Below are positions 3,378 through 54,209 of a stretch of 64,000 nt of DNA, in pieces; within the stretch, counting starts at the first letter, position 1, and every line of letters begins with the position of its first letter. The stretch lies in NCBI GenBank assembly GCA_963822575.1, contig CAWGHZ010000002.1, positions 327,115-391,114 on the forward strand, written 5' to 3'. The notes under the pieces were generated by a model. The model did not search any database. It was not told where the DNA came from and saw only the letters and a program-made list of their open reading frames with translations. Origin of the DNA: an uncultured Alphaproteobacteria bacterium. Its GTDB lineage: Bacteria > Pseudomonadota > Alphaproteobacteria > MPNO01 > DASWLB01. A program made the translations under genes and the position numbers.

Positions 3378-6300
3378 TCACCCCAGGGAACTGACATGCA
3401 CGTCCGAAGCATTCAATGCGACATCGCCCGGCGCGTGGCCCTGTAGGCTCGCGACCACGGTGTAACCGGCCGTACTGCCATTGGGATCGAAATACAGCGT
3501 CTGGTCTGCCGTGGAGTAGATGAATGTGGGATCCTGGGCGTCGTAGAAATCGTTAAGCCCGCTCGTCAGCGTCCCATCGTACGCTGTCGTGATTGTCGTG
3601 AAATGGCTGTGCGAATCCATCGAAGTGTCGGTCAGCGTGTGGTCCAAATTGTCGGCATAGACGTTATTGAAACCGGTACTGTTGAAATAGAGGATATCCT
3701 GACCGGTCTGGAAATCGGCAAGTATGTCACCGACATTGGACGGACCGCGCGGCGTGTTCGAGAGAATGAGAGTGCCGTCACCGGGTTGCCCGCTGGCGTT
3801 CGCGAGATTGCCCGCGTCGGTGTACATGAACACGTCGGCGCCGGCCCCGCCCTCGAGCAAATCCGAGCCACCGTTGCCCTGAAGGACATCGTTGCCGTCG
3901 AGGCCGCGCAGCACGTTGTCGCCGGAATTGCCGGTGATCGTGTCATTGAACAGCGAACCGGTCACCCATTCGATGTTCGTCAGCGTGTCGGTGCCGCCGA
4001 ACCCGTCGGACGCGGAGCCGGGGACCGAACTGTCGCCCAGCGTGACCGTGACGCCCTGGCTCATGCCGTCCCGCGCGGTGTCGGAGGCGTAGCTGACCTC
4101 GTCGATGCCGTTGCCGCCGTCGATCGAGTCGTTGCCGCCGCCGCCGAACAGGATGTCGTTGCCGTTCCCACCGAGCAGCGTGTCGTTGCCGCCGCGACCG
4201 ACCAGATTGTCGTCGCCGTCCTCGCCAAGGATGAGGTTGGCGTTGGAATCGCCGAGCAGGACGTCGTTGTTGGCCGAGCCATACAGGTTCTGGATGTTCG
4301 TCAGATAATCGATGAAGCCATAGCCGTCGTCGGTGGCCTGGCCGAGTTGCAGATCGACGCGCACGACACCGGGCGAGTCGAGATAGGCCGCGCCGTTCGT
4401 GCCCCCGCCGCCATCGATGGTGTCTTCGCCGCCGCGGCCGCGGAAGAACTCGTCGGCCGAGCTGCCCATGAACAGGTCGCCCGCGTCCGATCCCCGCACG
4501 CCGACCACGCCCGCGTCGAACATGTCCGTGCCAACGGACGAATCGCCCGTCGCTGTGCCCATGCCGTCGCTGTCGAGCGGCGTGAAATCGACTGTGACCC
4601 CGGAGCTCGCATGCAGAAAATCGAGCCTGGTGACGCCGCTGCCAAAGATGGTGTCGTTGCCGCCACCGCCTTCGAACACATCGTACCCGGCGCTGTTGGC
4701 CGAGTTGAGCCCGGACGACGAGTCGTAGATGTCGTTGCCGTCGGTGCCGATCACCTTCTCGATCGAGCTGACGGTCGACGTGGCGGTCAGAGTGTTGGTG
4801 TCGTCGTACTGGTTGACCGTGCCGCCGTAGCCGTTGACCTCGATGTGGCCGGGCTGGTCCGCGAAGCTCGCGATGTCGAACCCGGTCCCGCCGATCAGCG
4901 TGTCCGACCCGCCGCCCCCGATCAGCGTGTCGATCCCGTCAGTGCCGTCCGGCTGCTGCGGCGAGGAGCCGTCGAGGATGTTGTCGCCGCTGTCGCCGAT
5001 CAGGAGGTCGCCGTAGCCCGAGCCCTGCACGATCTGGATGCCGCTGAACTGGTCGGTGTTACCGAACCCGTCCAGTGCGGTCCCGGTGGCGAGGTTCACC
5101 GTCACGCCCTCGGGTGAGTTGTGATAGGTGATCTCGTTGCCGGAACCGACGCCGGTGAAGGTGTCGCTGCCATGCGTATAGCTGAAGCTTACGCCCGAGC
5201 CCGACCCGTTGAACGTGTCGTCGCCCGCCAGCCCGAAGAACTGGGTATTGCCGTCCACACGTCCGGTGATCGAGTCGGCGAAATCGGTGCCGATCACGCC
5301 GTCGATGTTGAGCAGCGTATCGTTGCCGACCGAGGAATCCCCCGTCGCGGTTCCGTTCGTGCCGTCCCCGAGGTCGACGGTCACGGCGCCCGTGGCGTTC
5401 GCATAGTCGACCTGGTCGTGGGTGCCAGCTGGGTGGGTTCCGCCGTCGATCGTGTCGTTGCCGCCGTTGCCGCGGATGCGGTTGGCCGTGGCGTTGCCGG
5501 TAAGAATGTCGTTGAAGTCGCTGCCTTGCAGGCCGTACAGGCTGGCGAAGCCCTGGATCGTGTCGGTGCCGGCGTACGGGTCGGCGACCGTCAGCCCGCC
5601 ATACCCGTCGCCTGCCGACGACAAGTCGATGTTCAGGCCCGTGAACATCGGGTCGAGGTTGGGATCGAACGCGCCGACCTCTTGGTACGACACCGTCATC
5701 TGCGTCGCGTTCGGTATTGTCGAAATAGTCGTTGCCCGGCCCGCCGACGAAGTACTGCCGGTTTCCCAGGTCACCATCCACCGTCGCGCCGCCGAAGAAC
5801 GTGTCGTCGTTCACGGTGCCGATGACGCGCTCGACGCTGTCGAACAGGTTGTTGGCGCCCTCGGTCGTATCGATGATGATGTTCTGGCCGCTCGTGTGGA
5901 AGTCGACGGTGATCCCGGCGGCCCCGGTCACGCCCGAGTAGCTGACCGTGTCGAATCCGGAATCGCCGTATACGGTGTCATTGCCGCCGCGCGGGGCGAT
6001 GACGTCGTCGCCGCCATTGCCGAAGATGCGGTTGTCATTGTTGTCGCCCTTCAGCGTATCGTTGTAATTCGACCCGGAAATATCGTCAATGTTGCTGAAC
6101 GTGTCGGTGCCGCCGAAGCCGTCGGTCGCGGTGCCCGCTTGGAGGTCGACGGTCACGCCGGCGGGCGCGTTCTTGTAGTTGATCTGGTTGTCGGCCGTGG
6201 CGCTGCCGACGATGCTGTCGTCACCGCCGCCCGGCTGGAACACGTTGAACCCGGTCTGGCTGCCGATCAGCGTGTCGTTGAAGGCCGAACCGCGCGCGCC

Positions 6301-9300
6301 GACGACGTTGAGGAGCGTATCCGTGCCGCCGTACCCGTCAGAAGCCGTGCCGGCGCCGAGGTCGACGGTCACACCCTGGTTGCCTGCGCCGACAGGCGAG
6401 CGGTCGTATCCCGCGATCGTGCCGATCAGCCGCTCGTTGCCCGGGAATTGCGCGCCGATGCCGTAGATCGTGTCGTTGCCGCCCTCGCCGTCGAAGACGT
6501 GCGTGTTGAGCTCGCTGTTGCCAGGCCCGGGCGGGGCGTCGAAGAACGTGTCGGCCTGCGGACTGCCGTAGAAGCGCTCGACGCCGCGCACCACGTCGTG
6601 CTCGGCGCCGCCGGCGTCCATGTAGGAGACCGAGTAGTCCGGCACGCCCGACATTCCGGAGGGCGTGCCCAGCATCCGGACCTCGATGCCGTTCGCGTCG
6701 GTGACGAACGAGTAGTCCACCGTGTCGAACCCGTCGCCGCCGAAGAACGAGTCGCTGCCGGTGCCGTCGCTGCCCATGCCCACGAACGTGTCGTTGCCGT
6801 CGAGCCCGACCAGCTTGTTCGGGTGGGCATTGCCCGTCAGCATGTCGTCGAAGTTCGTGCCGGTCAGGTTCTCGATCGAGATCAGCGTGTCGGTGTCCGC
6901 GCCGATCGTCGCCGTACCGTCGCCGTTGGCATCGAGCGCGACCGTCACCCCGGTCGACGCGTTGCTCCAGCTCACGCTGTCGGTGCCGCTGCCGCCGTCC
7001 AGCGTATCGCTGCCCGCGCCGCCGCCCAGCAGATCGTCGCCCGCGCCGCCCGAGAGCGAATCGTTGCCGTCCTGGCCGAGCAGCCGGTCGTTGCCGTCGC
7101 CGCCGATCAAAGTGTCGTTGCCCGCGCCGCCGGCGAGCCAATCGCTCGCCGCACTGCCGGTCAGGGAGTCGGCTCCCGTTCCGCCCTGGAAGAAGGCGGG
7201 GCCATTGCCCGCGGTGGCGTCGACCGCGACGGCCGACCCGGTCGCATCGACGGCGTCGGGGCCGTCGTTCCCGTTATAGATGAGCGATGAGAGGTCCGTG
7301 CCCGACAGGTCGCCGACGATCACCGAACTTCCGCCGGTGCCGCCGTCGATTTGGGCAACTTCGATGCCAACCAGGCTCACCGTCGCCAGGATTGCGGCGA
7401 TGGTGATCTCGACGGCGAGCTCGGTGCCGCCGGTCGCGGTGAACACGAAGCCGGTTCTCTGCGTCGGATCGGCGGCGAACACGGCCTTGTCCGTGCCGGC
7501 GCCGCCGTGGATCTCGTCGCTACCGCCGCCACCGACGATCGTATCGTTGCCGGACCCACCATAAATCAGGTCGCGTAACGCGCCGCCCACCAGCATGTCG
7601 CCCGCGGAATCGCCGACGATCAGATTGTTCGCGGCATTGTCGCCGACGAATCCCTGCTGGACCGTGTAGGTGATGCCGGCCCCATTGTTGAAATTGGGGT
7701 CGAAGCCGAATTCGATCGGATCGCCCGCGAACTCGTTCTGAACGACGATCGAGCCGCCATCCGACAGGGTAAGGGTAAGATCGCTTCCGCCGGTGCCGGT
7801 GCGCGCAACACCCGTCACGTCGCCATTCTGGTCGTCGATACTGAGCGTGTCCATGCCGCCGAGAATCGAGGATCGTGTCGTTCCCGTCGCCGAACGTGTA
7901 GCTGTAGAAGTCGTCGCCGGCCCCGCCCTGGAGCGTGTCGTTGCCGCCCCCGCCGACCAGCGAGTCGTCGCCGGCCCCGCCGAGAAGTGTGTCCTCACCG
8001 CTTCCGCCGATCAGCGTATCGTTGCCGTCATTGCCGGATGCGTTGATCTGGACGTCCGTGCCGGATGCGTCGACGGAATCGTTCCCGACGCCGCCGCTGA
8101 AGACCAGCGTGGTGAGCTGGGCCGATGTCACATTGAAGAGATCGACCCCATCGCCGGCGTCGCCCGCGACGATCCCGAGCACCTCGGTATTGTCGATTTC
8201 GGGGAAGTAGAAGCTGGTGGCGCCTTCCGCGGCGAGTGTCAGCATCCCGCCATAGCCGTCGACGGTGAACAGGCTCGTGCCGGCCCCCGTCACGCCGGTG
8301 ACGTTCAGCGAGTTCGATCCCGTCGCCGCCGTCGATGAGCGAAGGGCTGCCGTCGCCCGGGTGCCATTCGAACCGGTCGTTGCCGAGCCCGCCGAGGAGC
8401 GTGTCGGTGCCGGTTCCGGCATAGAGCGTGTCGTCTCCGTCCCCGCCGTCGAGCATGTCGGCGCCGCTCCCGGCGTGGAGCTGGTCGTCGCCGAACCCAC
8501 CAGAAACCGTCGTTCCGCCGCTGGCGCTATCGTTGCCGACATAGACGATGTCGTCGCCGTCCATTGCATCGATGGAGTTGCCCGATCCGTCGCCGACGAT
8601 GAAATCGTCGGCCGAACTGCCGGTCAGGCCCTGGACGATGGCGTAGGTGGTGCCGCCGGTGACGTCGACCAGGCTCTCGAGCGCGCCGCCCATCCCGTCG
8701 AACTGGCTCACGATATCGACGGAGTTGGAGGCGTCGAAGGTAAGGGTGAGGTCGAGCCCGTTCGTGCCGGTGCGTGCGGCCGTCAGGCCCGCGAAGTCCG
8801 GCACGGTGACCTGGAGCTGATCGGTGCCCGAGGAATTGCCGATCTGGTCGTTGCCGTCGCCCAGGGCGAACACGTAGGTGTCGTTGCCGTCGCCGCCCGA
8901 GAGCGCATCGTTGCCGCCCCCGCCGGCAAGCACGTTGTCGCCGCCGTTTCCGATGATCAGGTTGTTGAGGGCGTTGCCGGTGCCGTTGATGTTGGCGTTG
9001 CCGCCGAGCTGCAGGATCTCGACGTTGTCGGGCAAGGTGAGGCTGATCGAGGTCGTGATCGAATCCTGCGTGCCCTCGCCGGGGTTCTCGATCACCACAT
9101 CGCCCGGATCGTCGACCGTGTAGGCATCGTCGCCGGTCCCGCCCGCCATCGTATCGGCGCCCGCGCCGCCGTCGATCACGTCGTTTCCGGCCCCGCCCAC
9201 GATCGAGTCGTTGCCGGACCCGCCCATGAGCGTGTCGGCTCCCCCGCCGCCGAGCAGCGTGTCGTTGCCGGACTGGCCGTCGGCGCTGACGGCGCAGTTC

Positions 9301-12300
9301 GTCGCCGAGGCGTCGAGCAGATCGTTGCCCGCGCCGAGCGAGGCGATCACCTGTGTCACGCTTGTTTCGCTGAGCGCACCGATGGTCAGCACATCGTTGC
9401 CGGCCCCGCCGAGAATCTGGATGTTCTCGACATTGGTGACGTCGATAAATTCCGTGCCGACCGTGACGGTCACTTCCGAGCCGCCGGGCGAAACGGTGAT
9501 GCTATCGCCCGCCGCATCGCCATTGATCACCAGAAAATCGCTGCCGGACCCGCCGTCGATCGTGTCGTTGCCATCGCCGACCGACCAGAAGATGCTGTCG
9601 TTGTTGTCGCCGCCGGAAACGCTGTCGTTGCCCGTGCCTCCGGTCAGAGTGTCGCTGCCGGTGCCGCCGTCGAGCGTGTCGTTGCCGGCACTGCCGAACA
9701 ACGAATCGTTGCCGTCGCCGCCCAGAACCATGTCATTCCCGGCGGCACCGTCGAGCGTGTCGTTTCCGCTGCCACCGCTGAGCGTATCGTCGCCCGTGCC
9801 GCCGAACAGGGAGTCGGTGCCCGCATTGCCCACGAGCGAATTGTTCCCCGTGCCGCCATCGAGCGTATCGTTGCCGCTCGCGCCGAGAAGGGTGTCGTTG
9901 CCGTCGAGCCCGAACAGCATCTCGTTGCCCGCACTCGACGACACGCCGGACGTGCCGCCGACCGTGAAGGTCGAGCCCCGGATCTGGAACACGAACTGCC
10001 CGGGCAGGCCGTCATTCGTACCGAGAATGAGGGGGGCGGTGCCGGTGTCGGCGAAGGTGCCCGTCATGAGCGAGCCGGGAAGCTCGTAGAAGTTTCCCAT
10101 CGCGCCGGCGCCGTCGGAGAAGCCGACGACGGGCCCCGCCGAATAGTCCCACTGGATCTGGGAGTAGTTGAAGTAGATGTCGAAATCGCCCGTGCCGACG
10201 TCGGAGCGGTCGACCAGGACGACCTGGAACGTGTTGAGGAGGTCGGTCCCGCTCGGGAACCGTCCGACGTCGTTCCAGGTGGCGGCGAACGCGGCATGAC
10301 CGGCAAAAGTGCCGGTGCCATAGGTGACTGTGCCCGCGGCGGTCGTGTCGACGTCGGCGAAGTAGGGGGCGATGATCTTTTGCCCCAATGTCGCCAGGCT
10401 GGTCGAATAGTACGCCGTATAGGAGTTGCCGAATGTCAGATAGCCGTTGTTGTCGACAAAGACGTCACTATAGTTGGTGCCGAAGTAATTGACCGTGAAG
10501 CCGAGCGAGGCCTGTGCGACGGGAAAATCGTCCCCTGTTGGCAGCGTCCCCAAGGTGAATCCCGGCGCAACCGTCCCACCCGACACGGTGATCAGGTTGT
10601 CGCTCGCATTCCCGACCCCGGTGAGGTTGTCCGAGCCGGTGAGGACCAGGTTCTCGACGTTCGCGGGCAGGGTGTAGCTGATGCTGCTGCGGACGGTGTC
10701 GGTGCCCCCATTGGCGTTCTCGATCACCACGTCGGCCGCATTATCGACCACAAAGGTGTCGTTGCCGGTCCCGCCGACCATCGTGTCGGCGCCGGATCCG
10801 CCATCGATCGTGTCGTTGCCGTCGCCGCCAGTCAGCGAGTCGCCCGCGGTGCCGCCGATCAGCGAGTCGTTGCCGGCTCCGCCGTCGGCGACGATGCGCA
10901 CGTTCGAGCTCGCGCCATTCACCGTGTCGTCGCCGGCGTTGCCGTTGGCGATGATCGTGCTCTGGGAAATGCCGGTGTTGGTGAGGTTTCCGACCGTCAG
11001 GAGGTCGTTGCCGGAGCCGCCATTGAACGTGACTTCCTCGATCGCGCTGATGTTGATCGTGGCGGATTGGCCGAAGTTGACGTTGGGCGAGCTTACGGCG
11101 ATCAGCGCGTGCCCGGCGTTTGCGCCGGTGCCGGCCGTGATGGCTGCCGTGTCGCCGAAATTGTCTCCGGTAATGGTCAGCCGATCGTTGCCGGCGGTTC
11201 CGACGAAGGTGTGGTTGCCGTCGGCCACGTTCCAGTTAAAGGTTTGATTGGTCGGGGGCTGCTGCTGTTGTTGTTGCTGTTGCTGCTGCTGCGCCGAGGA
11301 GCCGGACGTCCCCGTCCCGGTGCCGGTTCCTGTCCCGGTGCCCATCCCGGTCCCGGTGCCGCCGCCGGTTCCGCCGCCGGTTCCGCCGCCGGTTCCGCCG
11401 CCCGTGTTCGTCGTCGCGGGCGGCGGCGGGGGAGGGGGAGGGGGCGGCGGGGGAGGGGGCGGGGGCGGCGGGGGCGGCGCCGCATTCTGCGTCTGGTCCG
11501 GTCCCTGGCCGCTGGGCGGCGTGTTGTCGCCGCCCTGCTGACCGTTCTCGCCGCCCTGGCCGCCTTGCCCGCCTTGCTGGCCCTGGTTCTGCTGCTGCTG
11601 TTGGCCCTGCTCCTGCCGGCCCTGGTTCACGCTGAACGGCGCAAGCTGGTGCGACAGGGCCTGCGCCGCACCGAACAGGCTCTGCTGCTGGGTCGGCGGC
11701 AGGATGAAGGGCTGCGCCGGCGAGCTGGAGAGGCCGGTCGAGGTCGTCGACAGGCCCGGCGCGTTCAGCAGCACCGAGCCGACGGAGGTGGTGATCGCGA
11801 TCGCGCCCGAGATCAAGGTGAAGGTCGACTCGCCGCCGATACTGGCGATCTGGCAGGCGAACTCTGTGCCGCGAATGCCGATCGAGGCGACCGGCGTGTT
11901 GATGTGCACCGAGTCGTGGTTCGCCTTGCCGATCTCGCCCGTCACCGCCACGAACACGCCCTGCAGCAGCGAGAAGCTCGCCGAGCCCGAATGCGTGTCC
12001 GGGTTGTAGATGAGCTGGTCGAGCACCATCCGGGCGTGATCGGCCAGCGCGAAGGTCGACTTGTCGACGAACACGATGCCGACCTTGGCGCCGTCGCCAG
12101 TCTGCAGCACGTCGCCCTGATAGACCGGCGCGTTCTGCGACAGGGTGGTGGTGGTGCCGTCGGTATGGCGCGCCGTCACCTGACCCGTGATCGACTGCAC
12201 GTGGCCGATGGGTTGGGCGCCGCCCGGACCGGCGGGGCCGGCCTGGGCGTACTGGCCGGGGGCAATCGGCCCGGCCAGGCGGGCCGCCAGCGCGCCCGGG

Positions 12301-12539
12301 ATGGTCGCGCCTTCGCCGGACACAAGGGCCGGCGGATGGTCGGTGTCGAAGAACCCGCGGACGACGACCTCGCGCCCGCCGGCGGTCAGGACCAGGTCGT
12401 GGCCGACCCGCGCATAGTCCGCCTGAACGATGAAATCGCGGCCGGGCACCACGACCTCGGAATGGCCGTGTGCCTGCACCACCTCGACCCGTCCGGCCAC
12501 GCCGCCGGCGCCGGACTCACCATCGAACCGCAACGCCAT
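3378..12539 (-). CDS. Giant RTX-family T1SS substrate (~3,050 codons) with an N-terminal FecR-like domain, a poly-Q/poly-P/GGGT low-complexity linker, a NIDO-like domain, many GGxGxD Ca-binding repeats and a C-terminal secretion-signal region. The ORF is interrupted by three apparent +1 frameshifts (near 8312, 7866 and 5700-5760).
   Basis: Four consecutive minus-strand ORFs (8028..12584, 7520..8569, 5059..7998, 3378..5777) each carry genuine Gly/Asp-rich nonapeptide repeats ([16 protein letters not shown]...) and become Arg/Thr-rich junk exactly where the next frame turns protein-like. The motif IGIRGTEF matches FecR; [19 protein letters not shown] matches NIDO. The proposed start ATG at 12539 has GGAGAGG upstream. 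The Asp/Thr/Ser-rich C-terminus lacks repeats, as in RTX secretion signals. Confidence 0.8.
11255..11480. repeat. Simple-sequence/low-complexity tract inside the RTX gene: CAG/CAA (poly-Q), (GGCGGn) runs encoding 21 consecutive Pro, and GGGT/GT dipeptide repeats
   Basis: Read directly in the sequence: cagcagcaacaacaa..., long (gggggaggggg/ggcggcggg) runs, and repeated ccggtgcc/ccggtccc units. It translates to Q11, P21, (GGGT)4 and (GT)6. Confidence 0.8.
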
Positions 12540-13022
12540 CGCCTCTCCATGCGGTGCCGTCCCGCCCAACCGGCGGCGCACCATCTAGGCGACGTAACCG
12601 CGCGAACTCCCGCCGGCGGTCGGCCGCCGCATTATCCTGCGTCCGCGCTACTTGTGGTCTTTTTGTCGAACGAATCGAATGACTTGCGCTGGACTACTAA
12701 TGTCGTGTCTTCCACCCCGCAACGAAGGGGATCCCACCCGATCCCACCACTTCTATCGAACATCGCACGATAGTCTGCGCCCGCACGCGGCGTCAACCTG
12801 TTTCGCCGTGACTGTTGTCACAGTCTTCCTTGAAAATCAGGACGTTAACTTTAATTCGTAACACCTACGAAAGCGTTCGCTGGGACTGTCGCGGCGCGCG
12901 CTGCCCGCCCGACGCGAATCTCCGTCGCAAGGGTGCGCGCCGCCTTTTCCCATGACGGGCGATGGATGAACCGCTAACATCGCCGCCAATCGCGTGAGCG
13001 CGCACGGGAGGCGCAGACCGGA

Positions 13023-17025: not shown

Positions 17026-17106
17026 TATGACCTGGCATCCCGGCCAAGCCGCGAAGCGGCGCGAGCCGGGACCCATCTTGGAGCAACCGAGTTGCGGGGG
17101 GATGGG

Positions 17107-17136
17107 CCCCGGATCGGCGCTTTGCGCCGTCCGGGG
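17107..17136. terminator. GC-rich hairpin between convergent genes; candidate bidirectional terminator
   Basis: The sequence ccccggatcggcgc-ttt-gcgccgtccgggg forms a ~13-bp stem with a single-nucleotide bulge. It lies between the amidohydrolase stop (17025) and the convergent DsbA-like stop (17143). Confidence 0.4.
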
Positions 17137-17142
17137 TGCCAA

Positions 17143-17772
17143 TCAGGAATTCGGCTCTCGCTTCTCCGCCCCGGCCTGTTGGGCGAGGCGTTCCATCATC
17201 TCGTAGGGCTGGGCGCCGACCACGCCATAGCCGGCCGCGACGAAGGTCGGCACGCCGGTCACGCCGTACTGGCGCGACTTCTCCCAGTCGGCGTCGACCG
17301 CGGCGCTGAATCGCCGTTCGGCGAGCACGGCCTGCGCCTCCGCCCCGTCGAGCCCCACTGCGCGGACGATGTCGAGCAGCACGTCGGGATCGCCGATGTT
17401 GCGCGCGTCGACGAAATAGGCGCGGAACAGCGCGTCGTGGATCGCCCAGCCGCCCGGCTGCGTGTCGGCCCACTTGCCGAGCTCCTGCGCGAGGCGCGAG
17501 TTGTAGGTATGGGTGCGCTTGCCGTAGGGCAGGCCCTCGGCGTCCATCCGTGCCTTCATCTGGCGCCACATGGCGTCGGGATCGAGGTTGCGGCCGCGAT
17601 ACATCTCCTCGACCGAGCGGCCCTCGGCGGGCGTCTCGGGGTGCAGCGGGAAATGCACGATCGCAACGTCGACGTCATATTCCCGCTTCAGCCGTTCAAC
17701 TCGCACGGAGCTGAGATAGCACCAGGGTCAGACGTAGTCCGAGAAGATCTCGTAGCGGACGGGCTCGGCCAT
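17143..17772 (-). CDS. DsbA/FrnE-family thiol:disulfide oxidoreductase (2-hydroxychromene-2-carboxylate isomerase-like) with an in-frame TGA at the first Cys of the CxxC motif; candidate selenoprotein, or nonsense mutation/sequence error
   Basis: The ATG at 17772..17770 lies 5 nt downstream of GGAGGA. Its translation MAEPVRYEIFSDYV-[TGA at 17730..17728]-PWCYLSSVRVERLK... continues for 187 aa with clear FrnE/DsbA-like similarity. The TGA sits exactly where DsbA/FrnE proteins (FSDYVCPWCY) have the catalytic N-terminal Cys. Confidence 0.6.
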
Positions 17773-17886
17773 CTTGGTCCTCCGTAGCTTCCTCTTACAT
17801 TGCACCCCGGAGGGCGCAGATCAAGGCGCGGTTTCCGGGCGCCGCGGACTGTGCCATCGTGGCGGAAGCGCGCGGGGGAGGGAGAC

Positions 17887-19008
17887 ATGGCCGCAGAGCT
17901 TCTGCTGGTGGGGAGCATCCCGCTGGAGACCGCGGAGGAGGTGTTCCGGGCGTTCGGCTCGACGCTCGGGCCGCATCTCGCCTACCTTCCTGACGGCGAG
18001 ATCGCAGACCGGCGCTACTGGATCGACGGCATCGCCTATCGCGTGCTCAACGGCCACACCGACCTGGAGACGGTCCGCCGGCCGAAGCCGACCGCCGACG
18101 GGCGCGAGAACTGGCGCCCGCTCGGACGCGACGACCAGTTCCAGTTCCGCGTGCGACCGGGCGTGAGCCGCGTGCGGTTCGGCGATCCGGGCTGGCGGCT
18201 CGGCTATACGCGCGACGCCATCGCCTCCTATTTCGTCTTCCGCCAGCTCCGCAAGGAGGGCGCGATTCCGGCGCACGTGAGGTTCCAGGTCTGCATGCCG
18301 CTGACCTGGAGCTGCATCGGTGCGTTCTTTCCCGATCCCGCCGATCGCGAGAAGGTGGCGCCGGGCATGACCGAGGCGCTGGCCGCGGAAGTCGCCAAGA
18401 TCGTCGAGAAGATCCCGCCCGATGACCTCGCCATCCAGTGGGACCTCGCTATCGAGCAGCGCTATGTCGAGACCGCGCTCCGCGAGGGCGGGCTCGCCGC
18501 AGGCCGCGCCGAGGCGGCGCGCATGATGGCGCCGGCGGCCGAGATCGCGCCGCACATCCCGGAGGCCGCGGCGCTCGGCTATCACGCCTGCTTCGGCACG
18601 CTCAACGGCTGGCCGTCGACGCGTCCGCCCGATCTGACCGGCACCGTCCAGATGCTGAACGAGGCGGTCGCGGCGTCGGGCCGCAAGGTCGACTTCCTGC
18701 ATTTCCCGACCCTGGGCGATGCCACCGATGCGTACTTCGCGCCGCTGGGCGAGCTCGACGCGAAAGGGGCGCGCGTCTATGTCGGCGCGATCCATCATTT
18801 GCACGGCGCGGCCGGTCTCGCAGGCCAGCTTGCGGCGGTCGACAAGGTGCTGAAGGACTACGGCCTCGCCGCGCCCTGCGGGTTCGGACGCGCGCCGGAG
18901 CGGCCGGGGCGCCTCCTGGCCGACGAAGGGATCGGCCCACCGCCCGAGATCGTGCGCACCATCATCGACGACCATCTGGCGGCGGCGAAGCTGCTGGCGG
19001 GACGCTGA
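17887..19008 (+). CDS. MetE-like (cobalamin-independent methionine synthase C-terminal/UROD-like fold) family protein, paralog 1, ~373 aa
   Basis: RBS GGGAGGGAG upstream of the ATG. The motif GYHACFG...E...CGFG resembles the Zn ligands (H-x-C, E, C) of MetE-type methyltransferases. It shares clear N-terminal similarity with the 20412..21449 paralog (VGSIPLETAEEVFRAFG.. vs VGSVPLPTAEDTFRALA..). Confidence 0.55.
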   Translation: MAAELLLVGSIPLETAEEVFRAFGSTLGPHLAYLPDGEIADRRYWIDGIAYRVLNGHTDLETVRRPKPTADGRENWRPLGRDDQFQFRVRPGVSRVRFGDPGWRLGYTRDAIASYFVFRQLRKEGAIPAHVRFQVCMPLTWSCIGAFFPDPADREKVAPGMTEALAAEVAKIVEKIPPDDLAIQWDLAIEQRYVETALREGGLAAGRAEAARMMAPAAEIAPHIPEAAALGYHACFGTLNGWPSTRPPDLTGTVQMLNEAVAASGRKVDFLHFPTLGDATDAYFAPLGELDAKGARVYVGAIHHLHGAAGLAGQLAAVDKVLKDYGLAAPCGFGRAPERPGRLLADEGIGPPPEIVRTIIDDHLAAAKLLAGR

Positions 19009-19076: not shown

Positions 19077-20415
19077 ATGGCTTACAAGATAAACGACACG
19101 CACGATGCGAAGCTCGAAAGCTGGGTCGAAAGCGCCAACAGGGACCGACACGCCGTTCCCGATCCAGAACCTGCCGGTCGGCGTTTTCATGCGAAAGGGG
19201 AGGGCCGCGAAGCCCACCTGCGGCGTCGCCATCGGCGCCGAGATCGTGGACATCCCGGCCGCCCTCAAGGCGGGAGTGTTCACCGGTCGCGCCAAGGCAG
19301 GCGCGGAAGCGCTCACCGGGCCCAATCTCAACCCGTTCCTCGCCCTGGGCCCGGCCGCCTGGTCGGCGGTGCGGTCGCAGCTCTCGAAGGCGCTGCGTAC
19401 CGGCCGCGGCGCGACCGGCAAGCTGAAATCCGCGCGGCGGCGCTGCCTCGTCAAGCAGTCGGACGTGCGCATGTGCCTGCCGGTCGAGGTGCACAACTAC
19501 TCCGACTTCTTCGTCTCGATGCACCACGTCATCAATGTAGCGAAGGCGGTCGGACGGCCCGAGCCCTATGTGCGCCCGGCCTGGCGCTACATGCCGGTCG
19601 GCTACCACAGCCGGGCCTCGACCGTGATCGTCTCCGGGACGAAGGTGCGGCGCCCGCTCGGCCAGTATCCGGAGGGCAACCAGCCGCCCAAGTTCGGCGT
19701 GTGCAAGAAGCTCGACTATGAGCTCGAGATGGCGGCGATCATCGGGCCGGGCAGCCGGATCGGCGAGCGCGTCCAAATGAAGGACGCGGAAGATCACATT
19801 TTCGGCCTCGTCCTGCTCAACGACTGGTCGGCGCGCGACATCCAGTTCTGGGAGTCGATCCTCGGCCCGTTCCTCGGCAAGTCGATGGCGACGACCATCT
19901 CGCCCTGGGTCGTGACCATCGAGGCGCTGGCGCCGTTCCGCGCTTCCCTCGATGCGCGCCCGGCGGGCGATCCCGCGCCGCTGCCGCACCTCGCGCCGCC
20001 GAAGGGCGCGCCGGCCGACGGGTTCGACATCACGCTCGAGGCGTTCATCCGATCGGAGAAGATGCGGAAAGCGCGCGAGGCGCCGACGCGCTTCACCCGC
20101 ACCAACTACCGGCGCATGTACTGGTCGATCGACCAGATGGTGGCGCACCACACCTCGAACGGCTGCAACCTGGTGCCGGGCGACGTGCTGGGCACCGGCA
20201 CGATGTCGGGCCCGACGCGCGAGGAGGCGGCGTGCCTCGTCGAGCGGACGCTCTACGGGCGCGAGCCGGTGCGCCTCGCCTCGGGCGAGATGCGCGGTTT
20301 CGTCGAGGACGGCGACGAGGTGATCTTCACCGGCACCGCCCATGCCGACGGGTACCGCTCGATCGGGTTCGGCGAATGCCGCGGGGAGGTGACGCCGGCG
20401 GAGAAGCTGAGATGA
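19077..20415 (+). CDS. fahA: Fumarylacetoacetate hydrolase (FAH) with an apparent +1 frameshift near 19135
   Basis: The frame from ATG 19077 gives MAYKINDTHDAKLESWVESAN. The remainder (TDTPFPIQNLPVGVF...) is in the adjacent frame (ORF 19105..20415) and carries the FAH N-terminal signature FPIQNLP(Y/V)GVF. An extra base lies around gccaacaggg. Confidence 0.8.
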
Positions 20416-21449
20416 CGACGACGATCCATTTCGTGGGGTCGGTGCCGTTGCCGACGGCCGAGGACACGTTCCGTGCGCTCGCCGCGCTCGGCTCCCGCGT
20501 GCCGCGCCTGCCCGACGGCGAGCCCGGCAACCGGCAGAACTGGATCATGAGCCAGCACGCCGTGTTCGACCGGGCGGGGATGTTCGAGCGGTACGAGGAG
20601 GCGCCGGACAGCCGCGCCCCGACGGTGAAGCGCGTGCGCTATCGGTTGCGGCCCGGCGCCGGGCCGGTGACTGCCGAGCGGCTCGCCCCGCTCGGCTACG
20701 CGGCGGGGGCGCGCGAATCCTTCGCCACCTTCTCGCGCCTCAAGCACGAGGGGTTTATCGGCCCCGCCGCGCGGTTCCAGGTCTCGATCCCGTCGCCCTA
20801 CGACATCGTCGGGTTCGGGGTCGATCACGCCGACTACCCGAAGGTCTATCCCGCCTACGAGCGCGCGATCCTGAACGAGGCCGCGCGCATCGTCGCAATC
20901 GTGCCGCACCAGGATCTGGCGATCCAGTGGGACATCGCGCACGAGTTCGAGTATTTGGCGAGCCATGCCTCGCCGCCCTTCGTGCCGATCACGCGCGACC
21001 AGGTGGTGGCGCTTCTCGTGCGGTTGGGCGAGGCGGTGCCGCCCGACATCCAGCTCGGCTATCATTGCTGCTACGGCGACTACAACCACAGGCACTTCAT
21101 CGAGCCCAAGGACACCGGCGACATGGTCGCCGTGATGAACGCCGTCGCCGCACGGATCGGCCGCACGGTCGAGTTCGTCCATATGCCGGTGCCGCGCGAC
21201 CGGTCGGACGCCGCCTATTTCGCGCCGCTGAAAAAGCTGAAGCTCCGGCCCGAGACGCAGCTCTATCTCGGCCTCGTCCACTACACCGACAAGCTGCCCG
21301 GCACGCAAAAGCGCATCGCCGCGGCGCGCAAGGCGGTGAAGGGGTTCGGCATCGCCACCGAGTGCGGCCTCGGGCGGCGCAAGTCGGAGACGATCGCGGA
21401 GCTTCTGCGCATCCACGTCGAGGCGGCGTCGTTCATGGACGGCGGCTGA
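20412..21449 (+). CDS. MetE-like/UROD-fold family protein, paralog 2, 345 aa
   Basis: Its ATG overlaps the FAH stop (ATGA). The motifs GYHCCYGD...E...ATECGLG are present. It is a paralog of 17887..19008. Confidence 0.55.
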   Translation: MTTTIHFVGSVPLPTAEDTFRALAALGSRVPRLPDGEPGNRQNWIMSQHAVFDRAGMFERYEEAPDSRAPTVKRVRYRLRPGAGPVTAERLAPLGYAAGARESFATFSRLKHEGFIGPAARFQVSIPSPYDIVGFGVDHADYPKVYPAYERAILNEAARIVAIVPHQDLAIQWDIAHEFEYLASHASPPFVPITRDQVVALLVRLGEAVPPDIQLGYHCCYGDYNHRHFIEPKDTGDMVAVMNAVAARIGRTVEFVHMPVPRDRSDAAYFAPLKKLKLRPETQLYLGLVHYTDKLPGTQKRIAAARKAVKGFGIATECGLGRRKSETIAELLRIHVEAASFMDGG

Positions 21450-38855: not shown

Positions 38856-39360
38856 CCCTGGTCCCTTTCCTGTTTTTGTGGAGCGCGGACTGATTGCACG
38901 CGGAAAGTCGCTTGTCAACATCGATCAAGAATTGATTCGGTAAATATGTGGCGAATAACCGCAAACACGCCGCCTTGAATTGCGGCTTTTTGCCGCGCCA
39001 CAGTATGCGAGGTGCAGGCGCTTGTGTGCGTTTGATGAAAATCGCAAAAGCGGACCGTAATCCGTATGCCGGAAAGCGATCAGGCCATAATCCCAGCATA
39101 AATGTTCTATAAACATCGTGCCTGTGATTTGGCCAGGGCGCGAATCCTTGTGCGCGTCCGGCGAACCCTGCGCGGCGCGCCGCCGCCCTCGGACCCGGCG
39201 CCGCCTCGCGAGCCGTAGTGGGATGCTGGAATGCGTTCCGCCATATATGGTAAGTTCCGCCCGATTCGGGTTCCCACAGAACGCGCGCGCCCGCATTGGG
39301 CCGGGCAGGCCTCGGTTCGCCGCGCGCGAACGCTTGAAATGCTGGAAAGGTAAGGGATCG

Positions 39361-40666
39361 ATGTCGTTACAGGAGGCCGCGACGGCGGTTCGGGGCGGGT
39401 TTTTCGACGCCGCGCTCAGCGAGACGGACCCCGAGGTCCAGTCCGCGATCCGGGGCGAGCTTGCGCGTGAGCAGGACCAGATCGAGCTGATCGCCTCGGA
39501 GAACCTGGTCTCCGCCGCGGTGCTCGAGGCCCAGGGCTCGGTGATGACCAACAAATACGCCGAGGGCTATCCGGGCCGGCGCTATTACGGCGGCTGCGAA
39601 TATATGGACGTGGTCGAGGATCTGGCGCGCGAGCGGGCGAAGAAGCTGTTCGACTGCGCCTTCGTCAACGCCCAGCCCCATTCCGGCGCCCAGGCCAACC
39701 TCGGCGCGTTCTTCGCGCTCGCCAAGCCCGGCGACACCATCATGGGCATGTCGCTCGCCGCCGGCGGGCATCTGACCCACGGTGCCGCGCCCAACTATTC
39801 GGGCAAGTGGTTCCACGCCGTGCAGTACGGCGTGAGGCGCGAGGACGCGCGCATCGATCTCGACGAGGTTGCGCGCCTCGCCGCCGAGCACAAGCCGAAG
39901 ATCATCGTCGCCGGCGGGTCCGCCTATCCGCGCATCATCGACTTCGCGAAGTTCCGCGAGATCGCGGATTCGGTCGGCGCCTATTTGATGGTCGACATGG
40001 CGCATTTCGCCGGGCTGGTCGCCGGCAAGGTGCACCCGAGCCCGCTGCCGCACGCGCACATCGTCACCACCACCACGCACAAGACGCTGCGCGGCCCGCG
40101 CGGCGGCATGATCCTCGCGATGGACGACGAGATCGGCAAGAAGGTCAACTCGGCGATCTTCCCCGGCATCCAGGGCGGGCCGCTGATGCACGTGATCGCG
40201 GCCAAGGCGGTTGCGCTGGGCGAGGCCCTCAGGCCCGCGTTCCGCGACTATGCCAAGCACGTCGTCGACAACGCGAAGACCCTCGCCAGCCACGCTGGCC
40301 GAGGGCGGGCTCGCCATCGTCTCGGGCGGCACCGACACGCACTTGATGCTGGTCGACCTGCGTCCCAAGAAGCTCACCGGCAAGGCGGCCGAGATCGGCC
40401 TCGAGCGCGCGGGCCTCACCTGCAACAAGAACGGCATCCCGTTCGACCCGGAGAAGCCGACCGTCACCTCGGGCATCCGGCTCGGCTCGCCCGCCGGCAC
40501 GACGCGCGGCTTCGGCGCGGCGGAGTTCCGCGAGATCGGCCGGCTGATCGTCGAGGTGCTGGACGGGCTCGCCAAGAACCCGGACGACAATGCGGCGGTG
40601 GAGCGCTCGGTGCGGGCCCGCGTGGAGGCGCTCTGCCGGCGCTTCCCCATCTATCCGCACCGCTGA
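39361..40666 (+). CDS. glyA: Serine hydroxymethyltransferase with an apparent +1 frameshift near 40290
   Basis: The PLP-lysine motif [14 protein letters not shown] and the SHMT N-terminus are present. The C-terminal third ([23 protein letters not shown]...) lies in the adjacent frame. There is an extra c in ctcgccagccacgctggccgag. Confidence 0.9.
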
Positions 40667-45053: not shown

Positions 45054-46034
45054 ATGACTGACCTTCCATCCGAATTCGAGTTGATCGCGCGGTACTTCGC
45101 GCCGCTGGCGACGGCCGAGGCGGCGCGCGGGCTCGGTGACGACGTGGCGGTGCTGGCTCCGGCCGCGGGGATGGCGCACGTGCTCACCGTCGACACCATC
45201 GTCGAGGGCGTCCACTACCTGCCGGACGACCCGCCCGCCCTGGTGGCGCGGAAGCTCCTGCGGGTGAATCTCTCCGACCTCGCCGCCAAGGGCGCGCGGC
45301 CGGTGGGCTACCTTCTCGCCGCCTCGTTCGGCGGATCGGTGACGGCAGCGTGGCTCGAAGAATTCGCCGCGGGCCTCGCCGCCGACCAGCAAGAGTTCGG
45401 CCTCTCGCTGCTCGGCGGCGACACGACGGCCAACCCCGGCCCGACCACCCTCACCGTCACCGCCATCGGCGATGCGGCGGCGGACGGTGTGGCGTCGCGC
45501 GCCGGCGCCAGGCCGGGCGAGGGCATCTATGTCAGCGGCACGCTGGGCGACGCGGCGCTGGGGCTGCGCGTCCTCAAGGGCGAGCTGGCGGGGCTGGAGG
45601 TGGCCGACCGCGACTACCTCGCCGACCGGTTCCGCCTGCCGCGGCCGCGCCTCGCGCTCGGCCGGGCGCTGGCGGGCGTGGCGACGGCGTCCATCGACAT
45701 CTCCGACGGGCTGATGGCCGATCTCGGCCATGTCTGCGAACGCTCCGGCGTGAAGGCCGAGGTGGCGCTCGAGGACATCCCGCTTTCTGCCGCCGCGCGC
45801 CGCGCGCTCGCCGCCGCCCCGGCGCTGCGTGACGACGTGCTCGGCGGCGGCGACGATTACGAGATCCTGTTCACCGCCTCGCCCAACGCCGAGAAGGCGC
45901 TGACCGAGGCCGCGCTCGCCGCCCGGCTCGCCTTCTCGCGCATCGGCACGATCCGCGCCGGGAGCGGCATAGAGTTAACCGACCGCACGGGCCGTCCGGT
46001 CGACGTGAGACACGCTGGATTCCGCCATTTTTAG
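45054..46034 (+). CDS. thiL: Thiamine-monophosphate kinase
   Basis: AIR-synthase-related N and C domains (LGDDVAVL, LLGGDTT, SGTLGDAALG). Confidence 0.85.
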   Translation: MTDLPSEFELIARYFAPLATAEAARGLGDDVAVLAPAAGMAHVLTVDTIVEGVHYLPDDPPALVARKLLRVNLSDLAAKGARPVGYLLAASFGGSVTAAWLEEFAAGLAADQQEFGLSLLGGDTTANPGPTTLTVTAIGDAAADGVASRAGARPGEGIYVSGTLGDAALGLRVLKGELAGLEVADRDYLADRFRLPRPRLALGRALAGVATASIDISDGLMADLGHVCERSGVKAEVALEDIPLSAAARRALAAAPALRDDVLGGGDDYEILFTASPNAEKALTEAALAARLAFSRIGTIRAGSGIELTDRTGRPVDVRHAGFRHF

Positions 46035-51634: not shown

Positions 51635-52660
51635 TCAGGTCCGGAAGAAGTGGACCGAGAACAGCCCCTTCTCGTCGGTCCAGGATTCGACCGGCGTGAA
51701 GCCCGCGGCGCGGGCCAGCGCCCGGAATTCGTCCAGCGCATACTTGTAGGACAACTCGGTGTGGATCGCCTCGTCCTTGCCGAAGGCGAAGGTCGCGCCG
51801 TCGACATGCACCGACTGGCGGCGGAGGCTCACCAGATGCATGTCGACGCGCCCGGCCGCCTCGTCGTATTGGGCGCGGTGGCGGAAGCCGGCAAGGTCGA
51901 AATCGGCGCCGAGCTCGCGGTTGATGCGGGCCAAAAGGTTCATGTTGAACGCCGCGGTCACGCCCTTCGAGTCGTTATAGGCGGCCTCGAGCACGCGCCG
52001 GTCCTTGCGCAAATCGACGCCGATCAGGAGCGCCCCGCCCGGGCCGATGACGCGCGCCGTGGCGGCGAGGAAGCTCTCGGCCTGCTCGCGCGGGAAATTG
52101 CCGATGGTGGAACCCGGGAAGAACACCACGCGCTCGGCGTCGGGCGCGTCGGGGAGCGGCGGGATCTCGAACGGCCTTGTGTAGTCGGCGCAGACGGCGA
52201 TCACCTTGAGCTTCGGGAAGTCGCGCGCGAGCGACGCGGCAGAGCGGATCAGATGGTCCTTGGAGATGTCGACCGGCGTATAGGCGGCGATATCCGGCAG
52301 GGCGTCGAGGAGGATGCGCACCTTGACGCTCGATCCCGAGCCGTACTCGACCAGGTGGCACGGCCCGCCGATCAGCTCGGCGATGCGCGGCGCCCGGGCG
52401 CGCAGGACGGCGATCTCGGTGCGCGTCGGGTAGTATTCCTCCAGCGTGCAGATGTCGTCGAACAGGCGCGAGCCGCGCTCGTCGTACAGGAACTTGCAGG
52501 GCAGCTCCTTCGCCGGGCGCGACAGCCCGTCGAGCACCGCCGTCTCGAAATCGTCGAGCTGCGGCTCGAAATCGTGGAAGGCCGCAAGCGGCGCGACGGC
52601 ATCGCCTTCCGCCGAGGCGGCGGTGCGGTCTCCGTCGCCGCGTGGTGTCTGGTCATCCAT
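51635..52660 (-). CDS. EgtD-like SAM-dependent L-histidine N-alpha-methyltransferase family protein, 341 aa
   Basis: The signature LPCKFLYDERGSRLFDDICTLEEYYPTRTE closely matches the EgtD/DUF323 N-terminal motif. A Rossmann methyltransferase core follows (VEYGSGSSVK). Confidence 0.7.
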   Translation of the reverse strand: MDDQTPRGDGDRTAASAEGDAVAPLAAFHDFEPQLDDFETAVLDGLSRPAKELPCKFLYDERGSRLFDDICTLEEYYPTRTEIAVLRARAPRIAELIGGPCHLVEYGSGSSVKVRILLDALPDIAAYTPVDISKDHLIRSAASLARDFPKLKVIAVCADYTRPFEIPPLPDAPDAERVVFFPGSTIGNFPREQAESFLAATARVIGPGGALLIGVDLRKDRRVLEAAYNDSKGVTAAFNMNLLARINRELGADFDLAGFRHRAQYDEAAGRVDMHLVSLRRQSVHVDGATFAFGKDEAIHTELSYKYALDEFRALARAAGFTPVESWTDEKGLFSVHFFRT

Positions 52661-53007
52661 GGGAACCGTCCCGTCTCACCTTGGCGCGGATCGAGGGTTG
52701 GCGGGGCGGAAGCCCTGCCGCGGAGACGTTAACCTAGCGACGGCTCCCCGCAATGACAAGGCCGGGCGGGTCGATCCATGTATGGCGAATTGATGTCGCG
52801 CGCGGGCGACGCTCGCGGCGAAACGGCATCTACAGAGTCGGAAGAACGGCTATCGAGTTTGTCATCCCCGACGCGGTGCAGCGTCTAAGGGGTGCACCGC
52901 GGATCGGGAGCCCAAGTTCGAGCGCCTCTCGAGCTGACAGATCGGCCCCGGCTTGCCCCCTTCGTTGCCTAGTCGGGGTAGCAGTGGGGTTTATCGGCCC
53001 GCAGCCG

Positions 53008-53619
53008 CTACCGTCCCTGGTAACGCAGATAGTCCGACCAGCTTCGCTCGAGCTGGCGCAGCGCGCGCAGCGAGATGGTGGGATCGTTCGGGTCGGCGGC
53101 GGTCTCGACGAAGACGCGGGCGTGGCGCCGGTCGATCTCGGCGAGCTTGTGGCACAGCTCCACGCCCTTCTCGGTGAGCACGATGCGGCGCGCGCGCTTG
53201 TCGCGCTCCGACCGCTCCTGCTCGCAATAGCCGGTCTCGACGAGCTGCTTCAAATTGTACGACACGTTCGAGCCGAGATAGTAGCCGCGCTCGACCAGGT
53301 CGCGCACGGCCAGGTCGCGCCCGTCGAGGTTGGTCAGCATCAGCGCCTGCACCGCGTTGATGTCGTCGATGCCGAGCCGGGTCAGCTCGTAGCGCAGCAC
53401 GTCGAGGAAGCGGCGGTGCAGCCGCTCGACCGTGCGGGTGAGCTGCACGTAGGTCTCGATCGCCTCGTCGCTGAGCCGCGGCGGCTCAGATTGCGGGGCG
53501 AGGGATTGGCGGGCCGGGCCGGAGCGCGGCGCGGCCGGCGCGGGGCGCGACTCGGCTCGGCGAGGGGCGCCCTTGGGTACGCTTGTCGTCGGGTCCATAA
53601 CGGTCGGATTTAAAGCCAT
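53008..53619 (-). CDS. MarR-family winged-helix transcriptional regulator with an N-terminal Pro/Ala-rich extension, 203 aa
   Basis: wHTH region LTRLGIDDINAVQALMLTNL...DLVERGYYLGSNVSYNLKQLVETGY. It is immediately upstream (same strand) of the Tad locus. Confidence 0.6.
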   Translation of the reverse strand: MALNPTVMDPTTSVPKGAPRRAESRPAPAAPRSGPARQSLAPQSEPPRLSDEAIETYVQLTRTVERLHRRFLDVLRYELTRLGIDDINAVQALMLTNLDGRDLAVRDLVERGYYLGSNVSYNLKQLVETGYCEQERSERDKRARRIVLTEKGVELCHKLAEIDRRHARVFVETAADPNDPTISLRALRQLERSWSDYLRYQGR

Positions 53620-53642
53620 GGTCTGAACTTTCTGTAAACGCG

Positions 53643-54209
53643 CTAATTGGCGAGCGCGGTCAGCGGCGCGAGGCGCGGGCGGAAGAACGCGACGCGGTAG
53701 AGCTGGGACGGGGCGATCAAGTCCGGCGCGAGGAAGGGCTCGAACGCGTAATACACCTCGGCGACGATCACCTCCTCGCCGTCGCGAATGGTGAAGCCGT
53801 TTGGCAGGGTGGCGACGCCGCCCGGCTGTCCGATCGCGCTGCCGACGCTCAGATTGCCGCCGCCCGCGCGCTGCCAGTCGATGCGCGGCGGGTTGTTGCC
53901 CGTCACGCTCACCGACGACACGATCACCGTGCCGTTCGCCGAAAGGTCGAAAGGCACGGCGATCTCCCGGCTCGCGGCGAAGATCTGGTCGAGATCGCCG
54001 CTGGAGATGGTGAGGCCGGAGGAGGCGAGGTCCGCGGATGTCGAGACGACGCGCTCGATCTTCTGGACCAGAAGCACGTAGCGCGCCGTCTCCACCCCGC
54101 CCACGGTCAAGGTCGTGAGGAAGGAAAGCGCGAGCGCCAGCTCGACGAATATCGATCCGCGGCGCTCGGCGCCGAACCGCGCGATCAGCGCTGTCAGGCG
54201 GCCGGTCAT
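53643..54209 (-). CDS. TadE/TadG-like pseudopilin/pilus-assembly protein, ~188 aa
   Basis: N-terminal motif GSIFVELALALSFL typical of the TadE family. ATGA overlap with the upstream tadE-like gene. Confidence 0.6.
   Translation of the reverse strand: MTGRLTALIARFGAERRGSIFVELALALSFLTTLTVGGVETARYVLLVQKIERVVSTSADLASSGLTISSGDLDQIFAASREIAVPFDLSANGTVIVSSVSVTGNNPPRIDWQRAGGGNLSVGSAIGQPGGVATLPNGFTIRDGEEVIVAEVYYAFEPFLAPDLIAPSQLYRVAFFRPRLAPLTALAN

Follow-up and report, generated by a model that had tools for sequence, protein, structure and literature searches.

A DsbA/FrnE-like gene with a predicted UPWC selenoprotein active site and a covarying bSECIS hairpin in an uncultured alphaproteobacterium

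The DsbA/FrnE-like gene described here, located on the minus strand of a 64-kb stretch of alphaproteobacterial DNA (the window), is in all likelihood a genuine Sec-encoding gene, in which an in-frame TGA at the active site is recoded. This reading as a UxxC selenoprotein, first put forward in a first-pass annotation of the sequence, is supported by the conservation of the TGA and its pairing with Cys codons in homologues, by a covarying hairpin that is specific to TGA forms and fits the published bacterial SECIS (bSECIS) model, by linkage to selA, selB and tRNA-Sec in relatives, and by 72 % identity to a protein from the Sargasso Sea. Judged by these comparisons, the gene is best regarded as an ordinary, hitherto unannotated member of a selenoprotein family known since 2005, and the novelty ascribed to it in the annotation was overrated because the family had already been published in that year.

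The layout of the gene (Table 1) was confirmed on the minus strand as annotated, with GGAGGA, a start codon (ATG, 17772..17770) and 14 sense codons (MAEPVRYEIFSDYV) ahead of the TGA at 17730..17728. The open frame past the TGA comprises 194 residues and not 187 aa as annotated, the latter being the length of the GTG-start ORF 17706..17143. The complete product has 209 residues (14 aa, Sec15, and 194 aa), followed by a stop codon at 17145..17143, and Cys18 is its sole Cys. Downstream, a G+C-rich hairpin is situated within the 117 nt that separate the dsbA-like gene from the convergent amidohydrolase gene; since it carries no U tract, we infer its function, and it is probably a terminator in the intergenic region common to both genes.

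Table 1. Coordinates of the predicted selenoprotein gene and its associated elements in the window.
Feature	Position	Strand	Basis or remark
Shine-Dalgarno GGAGGA	17778..17783	(-)	spacer to ATG 5 nt; read directly
Complete predicted selenoprotein ORF, DsbA/FrnE-like thioredoxin-fold oxidoreductase	17143..17772	(-)	translation; Pfam and PDB matches
UGA, predicted Sec, residue 15	17728..17730	(-)	sequence; TGA at the same codon in related loci
Predicted redox motif U-P-W-C (Sec15, Cys18)	17719..17730	(-)	aligned to CPWC (Cys22..Cys25) of FrnE
Predicted bSECIS hairpin UCAGCUC-CGUGC-GAGUUGA	17696..17714	(-)	MFE hairpin and RNAalifold consensus
Parts of the bSECIS hairpin	5′ arm 17714..17708; apical loop 17707..17703; 3′ arm 17702..17696	(-)	
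GUG in the apical loop, called as start of a 187-aa product without redox motif	17704..17706	(-)	ORF 17143..17706
G+C-rich hairpin, probable terminator	17105..17138	(-)	few nt past the stop codon; -29.6 kcal/mol, z = -3.9, 0 of 200 shuffles as good

When Cys is put in the place of the TGA, the product of 209 aa has a match to the Pfam family DSBA (PF01323) over residues 8-195 (E = 1.2e-31). Among relatives of solved structure, the closest is FrnE of Deinococcus radiodurans (DR_0659; PDB 5cnw and 5cp1; E = 7.5e-23 over residues 2-204), a cytoplasmic disulfide reductase/isomerase of the DsbA family. In this alignment the TGA coincides with the first Cys of CPWC (Cys22), which bears out the earlier placement of the TGA at the nucleophilic Cys of DsbA/FrnE proteins. 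Both proteins share the fold and length of the catalytic domain as well as a CPWC-type active site at the N-terminus of helix 1, but FrnE has Cys22 where the window protein has Sec15. The active-site motif of the FrnE subfamily (cd03024) is CP(W/F)C (PMC8945050), and the UPWC of the window protein aligns to CPWC. In FrnE, a C-terminal CxxxxC tail regenerates the active site (PMC8945050), whereas the window protein has no such tail; the motif is found in many, but not all, members of the subfamily and is also missing from the FrnE homologues of S. roseofulvus and D. maricopensis (PMC8945050). Periplasmic DsbA of the E. coli type, in contrast, has a signal peptide, a CPHC motif, and DsbB as partner, while the window protein has UPWC and no N-terminal extension: its domain starts at residue 8 and its active site at residue 15, which leaves no room for a signal peptide. 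DsbB is absent among the neighbouring genes (amidohydrolase, an unknown 406-aa protein, and fumarylacetoacetase). We are confident that the gene product is a FrnE-type (COG2761, DsbA-fold) thiol-disulfide oxidoreductase with a UPWC motif, presumably cytoplasmic.

To place the TGA in a wider context, one genome per species was scanned and 80 loci were retrieved by means of peptide patterns that are independent of the hairpin. At the active-site position, 43 loci carry TGA, 26 TGC, and 10 TGT, and one lacks the N-terminus. The alignment of orthologues suggested in the first-pass annotation thus found relatives with either TGA (43/80) or TGC/TGT (36/80), and the occurrence of TGA at the first-Cys codon in so many independent genome loci lies far beyond chance. 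The closest loci (L001-L003; 85-86 % identity) stem from MAGs labelled ‘uncultured Alphaproteobacteria’ and are syntenic with the window, sharing an unknown 189-aa gene, the amidohydrolase gene, the DsbA-like gene, and the fumarylacetoacetase gene. All three retain the start codon, the GGAGG, and the 14 codons ahead of the TGA. More broadly, an ATG precedes the TGA by precisely 14 codons in 35 of 44 TGA forms, and the peptide encoded by these 14 codons is conserved and shares homology with the N-terminus of the Cys forms. That the TGA, the ATG, the GGAGG, and the upstream codons are all kept in relatives speaks strongly against an assembly error or a private pseudogene. Downstream of the TGA, about half of the codon differences between the window and L001-L003 are synonymous, a share that is consistent with purifying selection on the DsbA-like gene, although it is a plain codon count and not a formal dN/dS estimate. 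One metagenome contig (L081, 456..1091, protein P0041; also P0008) carries the Arg codon CGA at the site of the Sec TGA, and its SECIS hairpin (CUCAGUACCGGGCGUAUUGA) is fully intact; the CGA stems from an inactivating T-to-C change of very recent date or else from a read error.

Beyond the codon itself, the 35 nt following the TGA are nearly invariant at the nucleotide level in TGA forms, and the peptide encoded there differs between the two types of gene (LS[ST]VR[IV]E in TGA forms vs. L[GA][SD][AN]RV in Cys forms). RNAalifold, applied to 40 distinct TGA forms, gave a single 7-bp hairpin that pairs columns 17-23 with columns 29-35 around a 5-nt loop (columns are numbered from the U of UGA, with UGA as 1-3 and the loop from column 24); in the window, the hairpin begins 13 nt and its loop 20 nt past the UGA. 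Not a single broken pair occurs among the 280 cells of this 7-bp core, and the stem reaches 8 bp in 19 of the 40 sequences. Over the 8-pair helix, 93.4 % of the cells are paired as compared to 87.5 % in shuffles, while slid controls, in which the partner was shifted by 1-3 columns, gave only 17-49 % pairing. Double changes are found in 19 cells of this helix, with a covariation score that none of 500 shuffles reached. Compensatory changes affect four of the seven pairs (U-A<->C-G in 12 cells, A-U<->U-A/G-C in five, C-G to U-A in one, and A-U to U-A in one), and one of them falls inside the window’s own clade, with C-G in the window, L001, and L003 and U-A in L002. In the 36 Cys forms, by contrast, the same columns are 50 % paired, which equals the level of shuffles. 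The hairpin is thus specific to TGA forms, all of which keep it, and is absent from the Cys forms, whose pairing stays at shuffle level.

The published bSECIS model allows for a loop of 3-9 nt, an upper stem of 4-16 bp, and an energy of at most -7.5 kcal/mol, with a G at loop position 1 or 2, usually followed by G or U, and a distance of 16-37 nt between UGA and loop (PMC13188914). The hairpin UCAGCUC-CGUGC-GAGUUGA lies within all of these limits (loop 5 nt, stem 7 bp, spacing 20 nt, -8.0 kcal/mol). Within the loop (C-G-U-G-C), the G of column 25 is invariant in the 40 sequences, with U or G after it. Across the family, hairpin energies have a median of -7.9 kcal/mol (range -9.4 to -5.6 kcal/mol), and in some orthologues the core helix alone misses the threshold of -7.5 kcal/mol. 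The folding energy of the 61 nt past the UGA is no better than that of shuffles (z = 0.23), so that it is the comparison of sequences, and not thermodynamics, that supports the hairpin. Rfam returned no relevant family, either for the whole window at the gathering threshold or for 17600..17800 at E <= 10. A different fold had been drawn in the annotation (columns 17-20 with 40-43 and 23-25 with 37-39); the bases named there (UCAG/CUGA and CCG/CGG) are indeed present, but their pairing is not the conserved one, since across 40 orthologues 63 % of its cells are paired, as in shuffles, and no covariation is seen. The true element uses the same 5′ arm, but its partner is GAGUUGA around the CGUGC loop. 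Like the fdhF-type bSECIS of E. coli, it is a stem-loop in the coding region right after the UGA with a small apical loop, a G and then a U early in this loop, and a UGA-loop spacing in the range of 16-37 nt. It differs from the fdhF element in that it has no sequence similarity to it and no bulged U, and its lower stem is not conserved. The analysis adds covariation evidence for a bSECIS that had earlier been predicted from folding alone.

A neighbour-joining tree, for which only alignment columns past the SECIS-encoded region were used, unites all TGA forms (from Alpha- and Betaproteobacteria) in one clade, while an all-Cys clade of mostly marine alphaproteobacterial MAGs stands outside. Three small Cys groups (L011; L069/L076/L078; L008/L013/L028/L029) are nested in the TGA clade, indicating at least three reversions from Sec to Cys. 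The topology shows the familiar course in which Sec replaces Cys once and is given up again several times, with decay of the hairpin afterwards, a pattern that has been described before (PMC1794560). Traces of the hairpin persist in L028 and also in L071, the latter being a Cys form outside the Sec clade.

The machinery for Sec insertion was sought both in the window and around the related genes. In the 64-kb window, no tRNA of any kind was detected by ARAGORN and no selA, selB, or selD by Pfam/NCBIfam scans of ~45 ORF segments, and tblastn with SelA, SelB, and Prx-U of relatives was likewise negative. An AIR-synthase-like ORF (45054..46031) was considered as SelD and rejected as it is ThiL (TIGR01379, 296 bits vs. 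41 bits for selD); it sits behind rib and nusB genes. When the window was scanned for further in-frame TGA codons flanked by two high-GC3 stretches, only antisense-looking frames turned up.

Among the relatives, five Burkholderiales loci (L039, L040, L041, L056, and L063) have tRNA-Sec 0.5-1.3 kb upstream of the TGA form, as compared to 0 of 36 Cys-form loci with tRNA-Sec near the gene (both ARAGORN), and selA and/or selB were detected too in L039-L041 and L063. In L040 (1..3630), the C-terminus of selA (TIGR00474) is followed by selB (TIGR00475, 373 bits), whose 3′ end contains the tRNA-Sec gene, then by a Prx-like gene of 160 aa with its own in-frame TGA (GHW-TGA-PYC), and, a few bases on, by the DsbA-like TGA gene. 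Such a Prx-like TGA gene (HW-U-PYC) occurs immediately 5′ of the DsbA-like TGA gene in ~10 Burkholderiales MAG loci, in at least three of which the DsbA-like gene also lies behind selA-selB with the nested tRNA-Sec. Selenium clusters of this kind were seen in L040 and also in L037, L039, L041, L067, L074, L075, and L021. The constant adjacency of the Prx-like and DsbA-like selenoprotein genes suggests that the two form a functional pair. A more far-reaching scenario, to which we attach a rather low probability, is a transferable ‘selenium cassette’, in which the DsbA-like protein would serve the Prx-like selenoperoxidase as its dedicated redox partner and the window copy would be a remnant or an independent acquisition.

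The family itself was described in 2005, when a ‘DsbA-like protein, COG2761, UxxC’ with nine sequences was listed as one of 15 new selenoprotein families from the Sargasso Sea (Zhang, Fomenko & Gladyshev 2005, PMC1088965). A 2026 review carries it as ‘DsbA-like protein form 1, PF01323, UxxC’ and states that most such selenoprotein families are known from bioinformatics only (PMC13188914). One of the 2005 sequences, AACY01473751, is given in the supplement as MVQVEIFTDYVuPWCFLSTVRIEKLK... (PMC1088965); the window protein is 72 % identical to it over 89 aa (E = 4e-54) and 52 % identical to AACY01028493 over 191 aa (E = 3e-80). The DNA of AACY01473751 bears the family-consensus hairpin (CUCAGUACCGUGCGUAUUGA) that is present in most loci, from which the window hairpin differs by just two compensatory pair changes (GCUC/GAGU for GUAC/GUAU). 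On the basis of these identities and the shared hairpin, the window gene is an orthologue of the published selenoproteins. Both have the PF01323 domain, UPWC near the N-terminus, and the same TGA position, and they differ in origin, marine plankton in one case and a soil-type alphaproteobacterial MAG of 69 % G+C in the other, but in nothing essential of the gene.

Public gene calls tell a different story. In the database record (P0001), the protein begins with MRVERLK, that is, at the GUG of the hairpin loop. A protein search returned thousands of homologues, and of the best 120 clusters 62 are full-length with CPWC, while 47 are 183-189 aa long and begin with MR[IV]E[KR]L at the GUG 24 nt past the TGA; one of these shorter ‘DsbA family’ clusters alone has 1152 member sequences. 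Products that start at the loop GUG are what would be expected if many orthologues also have a stop codon at this position, and because these records begin inside the SECIS loop, the whole active site is missing from them. Were these public calls right, the product would be the 187-aa protein from GUG 17706, with the upstream 14 codons as a leader peptide or non-coding, which is exactly what gene callers report for P0001 and the 47 clusters. We consider this extremely unlikely: such a protein would lack both redox residues of the DsbA fold, no ribosome-binding site precedes the GUG, which is located in the hairpin loop, and the U of the loop is G in several orthologues (CGGGC), destroying the GUG. 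Moreover, the upstream peptide is conserved together with its ATG and ribosome-binding site and is homologous to the N-terminus of the Cys forms.

Two further explanations were considered. An error of sequencing or assembly might have produced an A by miscalling in an error-prone long-read MAG, the true codon being TGC or TGT, and since lesions of the assembly type do occur in the window, for example the frame break near 40290 in glyA, a base-call error at the TGA is conceivable when judged from the window alone. That lesion is a frameshift, however, and not a substitution; the same TGA recurs in 43 independent assemblies obtained with different technologies and in the Sanger reads of 2005, and the window bears a hairpin that is otherwise confined to TGA forms, so that an artefact is scarcely credible. 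Somewhat less remote, yet still improbable, is a dead or dying selenoprotein gene in an organism that has lost its Sec machinery, where the UGA would terminate translation, so that nothing more than 14 aa or, from an internal start, a crippled protein would be made. The lack of Sec machinery within the 64-kb window agrees with such a fate, as does the frequency of Sec-trait loss and Sec-to-Cys replacement in the family, with its three nested Cys groups in the tree. Where Sec was abandoned, however, the codon turned into TGC or TGT and the hairpin decayed, whereas the window and L001-L003 have kept the TGA, the ATG, the ribosome-binding site, the open frame of 194 codons, and the hairpin with a compensatory change, and the synonymous share mentioned above is likewise consistent with a gene under purifying selection.

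With the TGA read as a Sec codon, translation would initiate at ATG 17772 and, at the UGA (17730..17728), the mRNA hairpin (17714..17696; 7-bp stem, CGUGC loop, conserved G-U) would recruit SelB-GTP-Sec-tRNA(Sec), upon which Sec would be inserted in place of termination and the other 194 residues made. By homology to FrnE, Sec15 would be the attacking and Cys18 the resolving residue, and the two may form a selenenylsulfide and cycle while reducing or isomerising disulfides, a task for which FrnE employs two cysteines. We infer that Sec is in fact inserted in this organism. FrnE protects against cadmium, diamide, and oxidative stress (PMC8945050), and the substrate and role of the window protein may conceivably be those of a reductase or isomerase related to oxidative stress. 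The main value of these results lies in annotation, as truncated records exist for the window gene, for its nearest relatives, and for 47 or more of the best 120 clusters. Once the gene is read correctly, the organism can be counted as a probable user of selenium and its proteome regains a redox enzyme; the knowledge of selenoproteins as such is unchanged.

Several other features of the window deserve mention. An ORF (17788..19008, (+)) whose start lies ~15-60 nt from that of the selenoprotein gene is transcribed divergently from it and has a paralogue at 20415..21449 (+). The two (~340-400 aa, ~33 % identical) flank the fumarylacetoacetase gene, have high GC3, and are conserved in L001-L003, and neither has a match in Pfam or NCBIfam. 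The glyA gene for serine hydroxymethyltransferase (39091..40666, (+)) is split across two frames with a break near 40290, Pfam SHMT positions 1-314 being found in one frame and 315-399 in the +1 frame. A frameshift in this essential gene points to indel errors of the long-read assembly, and this one lesion, the only one checked, agrees with the single-base insertions that the first-pass annotation had described elsewhere in the window. At 51635..54206 (-), a gene for an EgtD-like histidine-specific methyltransferase is present (PF10017, E = 1.7e-114); in the ~1.5 kb that follow it, no long high-GC3 frame was found, and this stretch may be a frameshifted partner gene of the ergothioneine pathway. 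Finally, very large RTX-repeat proteins are encoded at 3378..12584 (-) and adjoin an ABC exporter and HlyD (type I secretion). One of them (1518 aa) also has NIDO and FecR domains, and two stop-to-stop frames of this region overlap at 5059..5810, which may reflect another frameshift.
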